Shown here: in pieces, positions 43,119-47,139 of the stretch | Numbering within the stretch: position 1 is the first letter of the stretch | Layout: each line of letters opens with the position of its first letter | NCBI GenBank assembly: GCA_964016885.1 | Contig: CAXHJY010000586.1 | Coordinates: 1-47,755 of the forward strand | Direction: 5' to 3' | Origin: Eledone cirrhosa | Taxonomy: Eukaryota | DNA length: 47,755 nt | Translations under genes and position numbers: made by a program | Notes under the pieces: model-generated | Databases searched by the model: none | What the model was told of the DNA's origin: nothing | The model's input: the letters and a program-made list of their open reading frames with translations, nothing else

Positions 43119-43455
43119 GACAGAGAAATACGCACATACATTCATATAAATATATATATATATAAAAACAAATAACGAAACGAAATTAAATTTCGTTTCG
43201 TTTGTAACTCACTTTTGTATGACTGACGCTTAAACAATTAAGTTAAAAATGTACATCCACATATGTATACTGAAATACTAGTATGCATATGAATACACAC
43301 ACGTGTACATATGTAGATGTACCGAGTTTTCACTGGTCACTTTACTGTGAGTGTCCAGCTATTCTGTATGTAGACACACAGACAAACCGGTTCTTAGAGT
43401 CATACTGGTTTTTGAGGAAACACCTTTCCTCTATTCTCCAGAAAGCCAGACAAGG

Positions 43456-43500
43456 AATATTGGACTAGTTTCGATGTTGTTACATCTCATCAGCAATATT
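43456..43500 (-). ncRNA. Minimal type I hammerhead ribozyme, copy 1 of 8
   Basis: AAUAUUG-CUGAUGA-GAUGU-AACA-ACAUC-GAAA-C-UA-G-UC^CAAUAUU. All core nucleotides are present; predicted cleavage between 43463 and 43462. Confidence 0.93.
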
Positions 43501-43920
43501 TACCTATCTTCCGGCTTCTCTAGAGAATCGTGAAAGCACATATCGTTATATGCTTTTTCTATGAAAATTAGTAGTGGGCAGACCAATTTGCATAGAGCGT
43601 GAGTACGTACCGGTTCAACGGAGACGATAAAAACAAATAACGAAACGAAATTAAATTTCGTTTCGTTTGTAACTCACTTTTGTATGACTGACGCTTAAAC
43701 AATTAAGTTAAAAATGTACATCCACATATGTATACTGAAATACTAGTATGCATATGAATACACACACGTGTACATATGTAGATGTACCGAGTTTTCACTG
43801 GTCACTTTACTGTGAGTGTCCAGCTATTCTGTATGTAGACACACAGACAAACCGGTTCTTAGAGTCATACTGGTTTTTGAGGAAACACCTTTCCTCTATT
43901 CTCCAGAAAGCCAGACAAGG

Positions 43921-43965
43921 AATATTGGACTAGTTTCGATGTTGTTACATCTCATCAGCAATATT
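43921..43965 (-). ncRNA. Hammerhead ribozyme, copy 2
   Basis: Identical to 43456-43500. Confidence 0.93.
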
Positions 43966-44385
43966 TACCTATCTTCCGGCTTCTCTAGAGAATCGTGAAA
44001 GCACATATCGTTATATGCTTTTTCTATGAAAATTAGTAGTGGGCAGACCAATTTGCATAGAGCGTGAGTACGTACCGGTTCAACGGAGACGATAAAAACA
44101 AATAACGAAACGAAATTAAATTTCGTTTCGTTTGTAACTCACTTTTGTATGACTGACGCTTAAACAATTAAGTTAAAAATGTACATCCACATATGTATAC
44201 TGAAATACTAGTATGCATATGAATACACACACGTGTACATATGTAGATGTACCGAGTTTTCACTGGTCACTTTACTGTGAGTGTCCAGCTATTCTGTATG
44301 TAGACACACAGACAAACCGGTTCTTAGAGTCATACTGGTTTTTGAGGAAACACCTTTCCTCTATTCTCCAGAAAGCCAGACAAGG

Positions 44386-44430
44386 AATATTGGACTAGTT
44401 TCGATGTTGTTACATCTCATCAGCAATATT
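44386..44430 (-). ncRNA. Hammerhead ribozyme, copy 3
   Basis: Identical to 43456-43500. Confidence 0.93.
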
Positions 44431-44849
44431 TACCTATCTTCCGGCTTCTCTAGAGAATCGTGAAAGCACATATCGTTATATGCTTTTTCTATGAAAATTA
44501 GTAGTGGGCAGACACATTTGCATAGAGCGTGAGTACGTACCGGTTCAACGGAGACGATAAAAACAAATAACGAAACGAAATTAAATTTCGTTTCGTTTGT
44601 AACTCACTTTTGTATGACTGACGCTTAAACAATTAAGTTAAAAATGTACATCCACATATGTATACTGAAATACTAGTATGCATATGAATACACACACGTG
44701 TACATATGTAGATTACCGAGTTTTCACTGGTCACTTTACTGTGAGTGTCCAGCTATTCTGTATGTAGACACACAGACAAACCGGTTCTTAGAGTCATACT
44801 GGTTTTTGAGGAAACACCTTTCCTCTATTCTCCAGAAAGCCAGACAAGG

Positions 44850-44894
44850 AATATTGGACTAGTTTCGATGTTGTTACATCTCATCAGCAATATT
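44850..44894 (-). ncRNA. Hammerhead ribozyme, copy 4
   Basis: Identical to 43456-43500. Confidence 0.93.
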
Positions 44895-45314
44895 TACCTA
44901 TCTTCCGGCTTCTCTAGAGAATCGTGAAAGCACATATCGTTATATGCTTTTTCTATGAAAATTAGTAGTGGGCAGACCAATTTGCATAGAGCGTGAGTAC
45001 GTACCGGTTCAACGGAGACGATAAAAACAAATAACGAAACGAAATTAAATTTCGTTTCGTTTGTAACTCACTTTTGTATGACTGACGCTTAAACAATTAA
45101 ATTAAAAATGTACATCCACATATGTATACTGAAATACTAGTATGCATATGAATACACACACGTGTACATATGTAGATGTACCGAGTTTTCACTGGTCACT
45201 TTACTGTGAGTGTCCAGCTATTCTGTATGTAGACACACAGACAAACCGGTTCTTAGAGTCATACTGGTTTTTGAGGAAACACCTTTCCTCTATTCTCCAG
45301 AAAGCCAGACAAGG

Positions 45315-45359
45315 AATATTGGACTAGTTTCGATGTTGTTACATCTCATCAGCAATATT
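45315..45359 (-). ncRNA. Hammerhead ribozyme, copy 5
   Basis: Identical to 43456-43500. Confidence 0.93.
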
Positions 45360-45779
45360 TACCTATCTTCCGGCTTCTCTAGAGAATCGTGAAAGCATAT
45401 ATCGTTATATGCTTTTTCTATGAAAATTAGTAGTGGGCAGACCAATTTGCATAGAGCGTGAGTACGTACCGGTTCAACGGAGACGATAAAAACAAATAAC
45501 GAAACGAAATTAAATTTCGTTTCGTTTGTAACTCACTTTTGTATGACTGACGCTTAAACAATTAAGTTAAAAATGTACATCCACATATGTATACTGAAAT
45601 ACTAGTATGCATATGAATACACACACGTGTACATATGTAGATGTACCGAGTTTTCACTGGTCACTTTACTGTGAGTGTCCAGCTATTCTGTATGTAGACA
45701 CACAGACAAACCGGTTCTTAGAGTCATACTGGTTTTTGAGGAAACACCTTTCCTCTATTCTCCAGAAAGCCAGACAAGG

Positions 45780-45824
45780 AATATTGGACTAGTTTCGATG
45801 TTGTTACATCTCATCAGCAATATT
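45780..45824 (-). ncRNA. Hammerhead ribozyme, copy 6
   Basis: Identical to 43456-43500. Confidence 0.93.
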
Positions 45825-46244
45825 TACCTATCTTCCGGCTTCTCTAGAGAATCGTGAAAGCACATATCGTTATATGCTTTTTCTATGAAAATTAGTAGTG
45901 GGCAGACCAATTTGCATAGAGCGTGAGTACGTACCGGTTCAACGGAGACGATAAAAACAAATAACGAAACGAAATTAAATTTCGTTTCGTTTGTAACTCA
46001 CTTTTGTATGACTGACGCTTAAACAATTAAGTTAAAAATGTACATCCACATATGTATACTGAAATACTAGTATGCATATGAATACACACACGTGTACATA
46101 TGTAGATGTACCGAGTTTTCACTGGTCACTTTACTGTGAGTGTCCAGCTATTCTGTATGTAGACACACAGACAAACCGGTTCTTAGAGTCATACTGGTTT
46201 TTGAGGAAACACCTTTCCTCTATTCTCCAGAAAGCCAGACAAGG

Positions 46245-46289
46245 AATATTGGACTAGTTTCGATGTTGTTACATCTCATCAGCAATATT
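46245..46289 (-). ncRNA. Hammerhead ribozyme, copy 7
   Basis: Identical to 43456-43500. Confidence 0.93.
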
Positions 46290-46709
46290 TACCTATCTTC
46301 CGGCTTCTCTAGAGAATCGTGAAAGCACATATCGTTATATGCTTTTTCTATGAAAATTAGTAGTGGGCAGACCAATTTGCATAGAGCGTGAGTACGTACC
46401 GGTTCAACGGAGACGATAAAAACAAATAACGAAACGAAATTAAATTTCGTTTCGTTTGTAACTCACTTTTGTATGACTGACGCTTAAACAATTAAGTTAA
46501 AAATGTACATCCACATATGTATACTGAAATACTAGTATGCATATGAATACACACACGTGTACATATGTAGATGTACCGAGTTTTCACTGGTCACTTTACT
46601 GTGAGTGTCCAGCTATTCTGTATGTAGACACACAGACAAACCGGTTCTTAGAGTCATACTGGTTTTTGAGGAAACACCTTTCCTCTATTCTCCAGAAAGC
46701 CAGACAAGG

Positions 46710-46754
46710 AATATTGGACTAGTTTCGATGTTGTTACATCTCATCAGCAATATT
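46710..46754 (-). ncRNA. Hammerhead ribozyme, copy 8
   Basis: Identical to 43456-43500. Confidence 0.93.
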
Positions 46755-47139
46755 TACCTATCTTCCGGCTTCTCTAGAGAATCGTGAAAGCACATATCGT
46801 TATATGCTTTTTCTATGAAAATTAGTAGTGGGCAGACCAATTTGCATAGAGCGTGAGTACGTACCGGTTCAACGGAGACGATAAAAACAAATAACGAAAC
46901 GAAATTAAATTTCGTTTCGTTTGTAACTCACTTTTGTATGACTGACGCTTAAACAATTAAGTTAAAAATGTACATCCACATATGTATACTGAAATACTAG
47001 TATGCATATGAATACACACACGTGTACATATGTAGATGTACCGAGTTTTCACTGGTCACTTTACTGTGAGTGTCCAGCTATTCTGTATGTAGACACACAG
47101 ACAAACCGGTTCTTAGAGTCATACTGGTTTTTGAGGAAA

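Follow-up and report, generated by a model that had tools for sequence, protein, structure and literature searches.

Insertion anatomy of a hammerhead retrozyme in Eledone cirrhosa points to spread by a Penelope-like enzyme

INTRODUCTION

How does a short non-coding RNA come to be copied into a genome many units at a time, and which enzyme does the copying? The question is raised by a 47,755-nucleotide stretch of DNA from Eledone cirrhosa (contig CAXHJY010000586.1 of assembly GCA_964016885.1, analyzed over its full length and called the window below), near the end of which a tandem array of hammerhead-bearing units is fused head to head with a fragment of a Penelope-like element (PLE). PLEs have been proposed as helpers of retrozymes, on the grounds of coexistence and of similarity to their pseudo-long terminal repeats (pLTRs) (PMC7229834; bioRxiv 10.64898/2026.07.22.740005), and the initial annotation of the window had called the array an animal retrozyme moved by Penelope-like machinery. 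Fixed insertion ends, inverted arms and (TA)n targets now support that call, and our analysis adds the PLE fragment on the 5′ end of the array, the dispersal of the family across the genome and an empty copy of the insertion site. We think it probable that this is a young, active retrozyme without long terminal repeats (non-LTR) and that a Penelope-like protein combining reverse transcriptase (RT) and GIY-YIG domains copies it into the genome in trans.

RESULTS

The array carries a canonical type I hammerhead in every full unit

The array occupies positions 43162 to 47139 on the minus strand, with a period of 465 bp, 8.55 copies and 99% matches (8.6 copies according to Tandem Repeats Finder). 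With unit positions counted from the predicted cleavage site, it runs from position 43, a 5′ truncation at 47139, to position 301, its 3′ end at 43162. Eight identical hammerhead cores start at 46747, 46282, 45817, 45352, 44887, 44423, 43958 and 43493, as expected from the intact hammerheads that had been described here, and predicted cuts from after 46717 to after 43463 would release seven monomers of 465, 465, 465, 465, 464, 465 and 465 nt, four of them identical. The motif of the last unit (43440-43511, minus strand) has a helix I of 7 bp with an extension, a helix II of 5 bp and a helix III of only 1-2 bp with a palindromic loop; copies of it follow at 465-bp intervals as far as about 46765, and the cut placed earlier at 43463/43462 is correct as a prediction. 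A scan of the array against Rfam, a check that the initial annotation had proposed, gave a divided answer: no family reached its gathering score, but a search by E-value over 43100-44200 returned full-length matches to Hammerhead_HH9 at 43440-43511 and 43905-43976 (38.9 bits against a gathering score of 52, E = 4.3e-8). Matches to sraA and to microRNAs in the same search merely reflect hairpins of the unit and were discarded.

In the predicted fold of the whole unit, helices I and II have high probability and helix I continues beyond an internal loop. The palindrome of helix III would pair with itself between two copies of the unit, the fold with a closed helix III being 5.9 kcal/mol less favorable by calculation, and the hammerhead is expected to cut as a dimer. 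Two kinds of metazoan motif are described in PMC4209133: a canonical type I, with a full core, a 6-bp helix I with a loop extension and a short helix III with a palindromic loop, and the minimal PLE hammerhead, with a short helix I, a long helix II and an unpaired base ahead of helix II. The motif of the unit fits the canonical type, with putative tertiary contacts and a score below the Rfam threshold. It was first labeled minimal, which has to be revised because helix I extends past the internal loop; the minimal traits, absent from the unit, are instead found in the motif of the host PLE's pLTR.

Searched across the 3.0-Gb genome, as had been suggested, the exact 31-nt core occurs 1633 times and its reversed control not once, so the hammerhead match is not due to chance and the family is widely dispersed. 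Tandem units that each hold a complete type I hammerhead, a non-coding and strongly self-paired sequence with a GC content below 50% (0.37; longest reading frame 64 codons) and dispersal that includes an empty site identify the element, at the DNA level, as an animal non-LTR retrozyme of a known kind. Its length, which had been thought unusual, is ordinary, as 465 bp lies within the range of 51-972 bp given for retrozymes in a 2026 preprint (bioRxiv 10.64898/2026.07.22.740005).

Insertions have two fixed internal ends and inverted arms

For the anatomy of insertions we used 59 stretches representing 57 loci: 20 from the best unit matches, all 28 loci among the first 100 cores listed on C1, and a remainder made up of nine other chosen stretches, one further stretch beside a PLE, and the window. 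As loci had been selected by the exact core, low core variation among them was not counted as evidence. Junctions between unit and (TA)n fell in two narrow zones in 87 of 88 cases, at unit 224-234 (38 junctions, one probably called twice) or at unit 295-305 (49 junctions). In the window, the distal fixed end (unit 301, at 43162-43163 on the minus strand) is the inferred start of reverse transcription for this arm, and the proximal end region (unit 227-232), marked for a single unit at 43696-43701 on the minus strand, is where the opposite arm ends at other loci. Both ends could be called in 32 inverted insertions, and each of these had one proximal and one distal end; 30 of them lay inside one stretch and two spanned adjacent stretches, the other loci having at most one usable end called. 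Where a locus had a single arm, what lay next to it was (TA)n, a short second arm, an unrelated flank or masked DNA, and never a PLE arm. Two fixed internal ends, an inverted 5′-truncated copy and an AT-rich target are thus all present, as in insertions mobilized by PLEs, and this signature, together with the tail described below, makes it very likely that a PLE-type enzyme spreads the retrozyme.

The arms join head to head, with overlaps or gaps of -53 to +29 bases. At 40 inversion junctions, the 80 arms have 5′ ends spread uniformly across the unit (Kolmogorov-Smirnov p = 0.64); two of these ends are near the cleavage site, where 2.6 would be expected, and 62 of the 80 arms exceed one unit, the longest reaching 15.6 units. 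With 5′ ends placed regardless of the cleavage site and arms of up to 15 units, the template was either a circle or an uncleaved multimer. Opposite arms of one locus resembled each other more than the mean of other loci at all 21 testable C1 loci (0.76% against 2.95% difference). In 23 arrays of at least four units, we counted 89 array-wide substitutions and 98 confined to a single unit, together with 33 variants of intermediate frequency, 29 of which lie within the old arrays L078 and L070. At L025:3880-5024, two units that share an internal deletion (positions 331-444) alternate with full units to form an 815-bp higher-order repeat, and at L086 other repeats separate two pieces of the unit.

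We consider a circle the likelier template: priming within the RNA can do without an end, and the RT goes through the cut site time after time, a pattern that an uncleaved multimer would share. The serious rival is that a PLE copied a linear transcript, read through from an existing array and left uncleaved, with the hammerhead slow or idle and circles uninvolved. This would agree with unprocessed RNA being the main substrate of the Anolis PLE (PMC11167929), with the poor monomer cleavage that a weak helix III predicts (PMC4209133) and with the few haplotypes common to many young arrays, as if these came from master loci. Linear copying, however, can only shorten arrays, hammerheads within a multimer would be able to pair and cut, and single-unit variants hardly ever pass between arrays (2 of 98 recur in another array); 7 of the 23 arrays also had array-wide variants that no other array of the sample shared, the sample being small against some 570 candidate places. 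We regard linear copying as unlikely, and a circle remains our preferred template.

The insertion site has an empty counterpart

Window positions 33090-42598 are collinear with C11:17683392-17693944, and the C11 copy shares this flank and keeps its (TA)n intact, without the array. A remnant of this target lies at 43150-43161 of the window, and the matching copy from C11:17693965 has uninterrupted (TA)n. The target therefore predates the insertion, and the insertion is recent. The interval C11:17690000-17709999 holds no unit and no PLE open reading frame (ORF), only one 53-nt pLTR-like match, and no PLE ORF was found in the 16 kb downstream of the empty site. Collinearity was not found between window 1-33 kb and C11:17.65-17.68 Mb, and the window contig may be the other haplotype of the C11 site or a duplicated copy.

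These observations also bear on the view that the arrays are ordinary satellite DNA, formed by unequal crossing-over after monomers or pLTR remnants had been inserted singly, as discussed in bioRxiv 10.64898/2026.07.22.740005. The intermediate-frequency variants in L078 and L070 and the higher-order repeat in L025 have that character, but fixed ends, an array missing from the matching site copy and inverted arms that are both multimeric and identical at young loci make it improbable as the origin of the family.

The array is fused to a fragment of an active PLE family

The plus-strand sequence at 47140-47755, cut off by the end of the contig, is a 5′-truncated piece of an active Penelope-like ORF that covers the end of the RT, a CX4CxxC linker and the start of the GIY-YIG domain. 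It is about 100% identical to 40 of 40 full-length places, these being the 40 that were scored out of 1836 candidates. The copy at L055 has an open frame of 1302 codons with direct terminal repeats, and the RT, CX2-5CxxC linker and GIY-YIG motifs could be read in it directly. Pfam gave no significant match to the protein, and a search of PDB, with the GIY-YIG domain of I-TevI at E = 0.22, did not name it directly either; homologues of the protein match GIY-YIG and, weakly, RVT_1 in Pfam, and the best of them is annotated in Octopus vulgaris (70%), consistent with an octopus host. With a single ORF, an RT, the linker, a C-terminal GIY-YIG and pLTR flanks, the element has the sequence features of the Neptune/Nematis type. 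Its insertions resemble those of the retrozyme, with arms inverted in (TA)n, and in 13 of the 13 pairs seen at 20 loci one arm ended at 528 and the other at 583/588. The pLTR, which does not resemble the unit, carries its own minimal-type hammerhead, and PLE copies run beyond this ribozyme into a second copy. Compared with three pLTRs of the host, the unit resembled none of them (z = -0.8, 0.0 and 0.0).

At 47139/47140 the array and the PLE piece meet 5′ end to 5′ end, bluntly and without (TA)n, where a second retrozyme arm would otherwise stand. The junction is unique in the assembly and found at 1 of 57 loci; a search for further chimeras returned, among the 40 candidates scored, only PLE copies and the window. 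L060, considered as a second chimera, is a separate inverted insertion of another retrozyme family beside a PLE. Two additional PLE-like families, each bearing a hammerhead and a tail of its own, were also seen (at L036, L057, L060 and L086, and at L048 and L074); the tail measures about 69 nt in one, and the other is 68-72% identical to the window's PLE.

Because of the mixed retrozyme/PLE insertion, we consider the PLE family of the window the likely helper, with less assurance than we have about the class of enzyme. It is also possible, though less likely than not, that the junction is secondary, arising by deletion between neighbors or by a mis-join at the contig end, and that another PLE family is the helper, which would be compatible with the rest of our interpretation. 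The single case, the nearby contig end, the presence of other PLE-like families, one of them with a tail of ~69 nt, and retrozyme and PLE insertions that lie side by side at L049 and L036 would all suit such an origin. Against it, the blunt geometry without (TA)n matches what is seen at the 40 ordinary inversion junctions, each part is 99-100% identical to its youngest copies, and the empty C11 copy has no PLE ORF in the 16 kb downstream.

A second family shares ends and candidate signals

A second retrozyme family, with units of about 487 nt in which an internal (TA)n varies and GUA is the cleavage triplet, has 480 exact cores (L099:461-4705, from C2:44952300 onward; also L059, L060 and L100-L110). 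It is 57% identical to the window family in global alignment (homology z = 36), and across the two sequences compared the hammerhead fold is preserved: of its 14 pairs, 5 differ on both sides and one is broken. Its ends lie near unit 272 and 330, the distal one aligning with unit 301 of the window family, and one end per arm was found in four of five pairs (12 loci).

The 69-77 nt between the proximal and distal sites correspond, by analogy, to the PLE tail. A hairpin at unit 261-289 (43639-43667, minus strand), 12 nt ahead of the distal end, is kept in the second family and is a candidate signal for the RT, and the context AT^CG is common to the distal ends of both retrozyme families and to both PLE ends. 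The octamer ATGCAAAT (43586-43593, minus strand) lies within a block conserved across both families and presumably matches the snRNA octamer consensus; by analogy the block may be an internal promoter element of the small nuclear RNA (snRNA) type. An internal promoter has a reported precedent in newt satellite 2 (PMC2220036).

The unit also occurs in other sequencing runs

Four of the 20 sequencing runs listed for the unit were examined for it and for the PLE. Run X1 contains both, with fixed differences as from a relative and with no contig spanning the junction, a result that has no bearing on the individual sequenced here, and run X23 has no read on the unit. Runs X4 and X5, labeled as other organisms, each hold a single, circularly closed unit contig of 495-496 bp, 97-99% alike, at depths of 9.7 and 4.5, and no near-identical PLE. 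Carry-over, related hosts and horizontal spread are indistinguishable as sources of these contigs. No RNA run was among the 20 runs listed as holding the unit.

The initial annotation had also suggested a circular-RNA replicon; for an autonomous one we found nothing in support. A viroid-like circular RNA that replicates from RNA to RNA and moves between hosts, leaving genomic arrays as by-products, would go with the very stable predicted circular fold of the unit (-153 kcal/mol, z = -9.4 against 40 shuffles) and with the unit contigs of X4 and X5. Yet the hammerhead core is confined to one strand, the minus strand, where such replicons often bear ribozymes on both, abundant genomic templates would suffice, and carry-over or related hosts explain the two runs equally well. 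We hold this to be very unlikely, the least probable account of all.

Other features of the window

The 3′ piece of a young, high-copy long interspersed nuclear element (42574-43118, minus strand; 545 bp), presumably of the L1/Tx1 group, lies 43 bp from the array and is missing from the C11 copy; its RT motifs could be read in L116. A (TA)n-rich tract of 2.2 kb (38482-40693) is much longer than its C11 counterpart. Open frames of glycosyltransferase family 11 (30927-32421, minus strand; Pfam E = 8.9e-39) have a 54-bp repeat in the upstream frame, and a broken Helitron Rep/helicase (23379-26203, minus strand; Pfam Helitron_like_N and PIF1) is followed by a 69-bp tandem repeat at 26477-26883. 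More hammerhead-like cores, probably pLTR remnants of other PLEs, occur at 41091-41318, with an inverted pair at 41182 (minus) and 41227 (plus), and at 4880 and 22152 (both minus). Several GIY-YIG- and RT-like frames at 360-3105, 5950-6555 and 19574-20518 resemble PLE fragments by eye, and the three of them that were scanned had no Pfam match.

DISCUSSION

The sequence of events that we favor would begin with transcription of arrays in the hammerhead sense, perhaps from the internal octamer-containing promoter. Paired hammerheads would cut the multimer into 465-nt monomers and a host ligase would close them into circles, as is established for other animal retrozymes. The PLE protein would then cut both strands of a (TA)n target and prime reverse transcription from both ends, at unit 227-232 and at unit 301; the pattern is seen here, and the biochemistry is established for an Anolis PLE, which in vitro cleaves AT-rich DNA on both strands, extends both and begins reverse transcription internally, at two adjacent RNA sites (PMC11167929). 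The resulting tail is called unique to PLEs in that work. As internal priming requires no RNA 3′ end, multi-unit copying becomes possible, and the RT would travel around the presumed circle, passing the cleavage site and copying as many as about 15 units before it drops off at random, in keeping with the arms observed. The two cDNAs would be joined head to head, usually with the same template variant for both. At 47139/47140, one arm would come from the retrozyme and the other from a PLE mRNA, which at this one locus suggests the PLE family as the helper.

Several points weigh against this interpretation. The chimera sits on an unplaced contig, 616 bp short of the contig's end, the 3′ end of its PLE is unreadable, it is the only one in 57 loci, and the 40 candidates scored gave no other. 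Several PLE-like families use (TA)n as target, so that adjacency or another helper is possible, and the tails of unit and PLE differ in length (69-77 nt against 60 nt) and have no sequence homology. Unprocessed RNA served the Anolis enzyme as its main substrate, and ribozyme mutants had no effect on insertion in the assays described for it (PMC11167929); eight of nine Xenopus retrozyme dimers stayed uncleaved in vitro (bioRxiv 10.64898/2026.07.22.740005). Since PLE copies also pass their own ribozyme, read-through alone is no proof of circles, and the concentration of 29 of 33 intermediate-frequency variants in the older arrays L078 and L070 suggests later local expansion there. Cleavage, expression and circles are all predictions, drawn from DNA sequence and analogy.

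Among described systems, the element is closest to the animal non-LTR retrozymes of coral, mussel and axolotl (PMC7229834), which share tandem non-coding units with one type I hammerhead each, low GC (37% here), a highly self-paired fold, thousands of dispersed copies and coexisting PLEs. Unlike these, its unit is slightly above the 150-450 bp quoted and is known from DNA alone; inverted arms and fixed internal ends, both found here, do not appear in the main text of that article, where the word "inverted" has no occurrence. Retrozymes that derive from pLTRs (bioRxiv 10.64898/2026.07.22.740005) likewise depend on a PLE partner and span lengths that include this one; in Xenopus, 24 of 57 families match known elements, nearly all of them PLE termini, in a sample without molluscs. 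The present unit differs in its lack of similarity to the three host pLTRs and in its canonical hammerhead, that of the PLE being minimal, and the link between retrozyme and PLE is here one of insertion anatomy rather than of ancestry. The same anatomy is known from endonuclease-bearing PLEs such as Poseidon PAc (PMC11167929) and Neptune/Nematis and Naiad (PMC8557442), with two internal starts, a tail at one end, an inverted 5′-truncated copy and microsatellite targets, whereas our unit has no ORF and tails measure 58-77 nt here against 30-40 there; beyond those descriptions, we have counted a strict rule of one end per arm. A classical target duplication is not readable in (TA)n for the window family. 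Non-autonomous Chlamys elements such as MRC1 (PMC8557442) are also non-coding, inserted as multiple head-to-tail copies and moved by PLEs, but their 3′ ends resemble those of their own autonomous families and they mostly lack hammerheads. We found no cephalopod retrozyme in the literature, leaving aside subscription papers, repeat databases and several supplements that possibly list some, and among the papers that it listed, the literature search showed no evidence of tails, rolling-circle copying or chimeras for retrozymes.

More tentatively, as something we find possible but would put just short of an even chance, the locus may be a single insertion whose arms were copied from two RNAs, a retrozyme circle that was rolled 8.5 times and the helper's mRNA. 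If so, it would be a direct record of a named Penelope-like enzyme mobilizing a hammerhead retrozyme without shared sequence, recognition would rely on a short structural signal (the hairpin and the AT^CG start), and the two RT sites of the complex would be able to hold separate templates. The bolder extension, in which the circle also moves between species, is much less likely.

The enzyme that spreads animal retrozymes, and circles as its template, have been proposed but not demonstrated in the papers cited here. Eledone cirrhosa offers a testable pair, a very young retrozyme with its two start sites mapped to within a few bases, and an active PLE family whose reading frames are open; an in vitro PLE assay is available from another species. 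How an RNA that lacks a 3′ end can serve as template is explained by internal priming, and the one-end-per-arm rule and the mixed insertion bear on how PLEs form inverted copies. The retrozyme is new but of a known kind, and its value lies in unusually direct evidence on how elements of this kind move.

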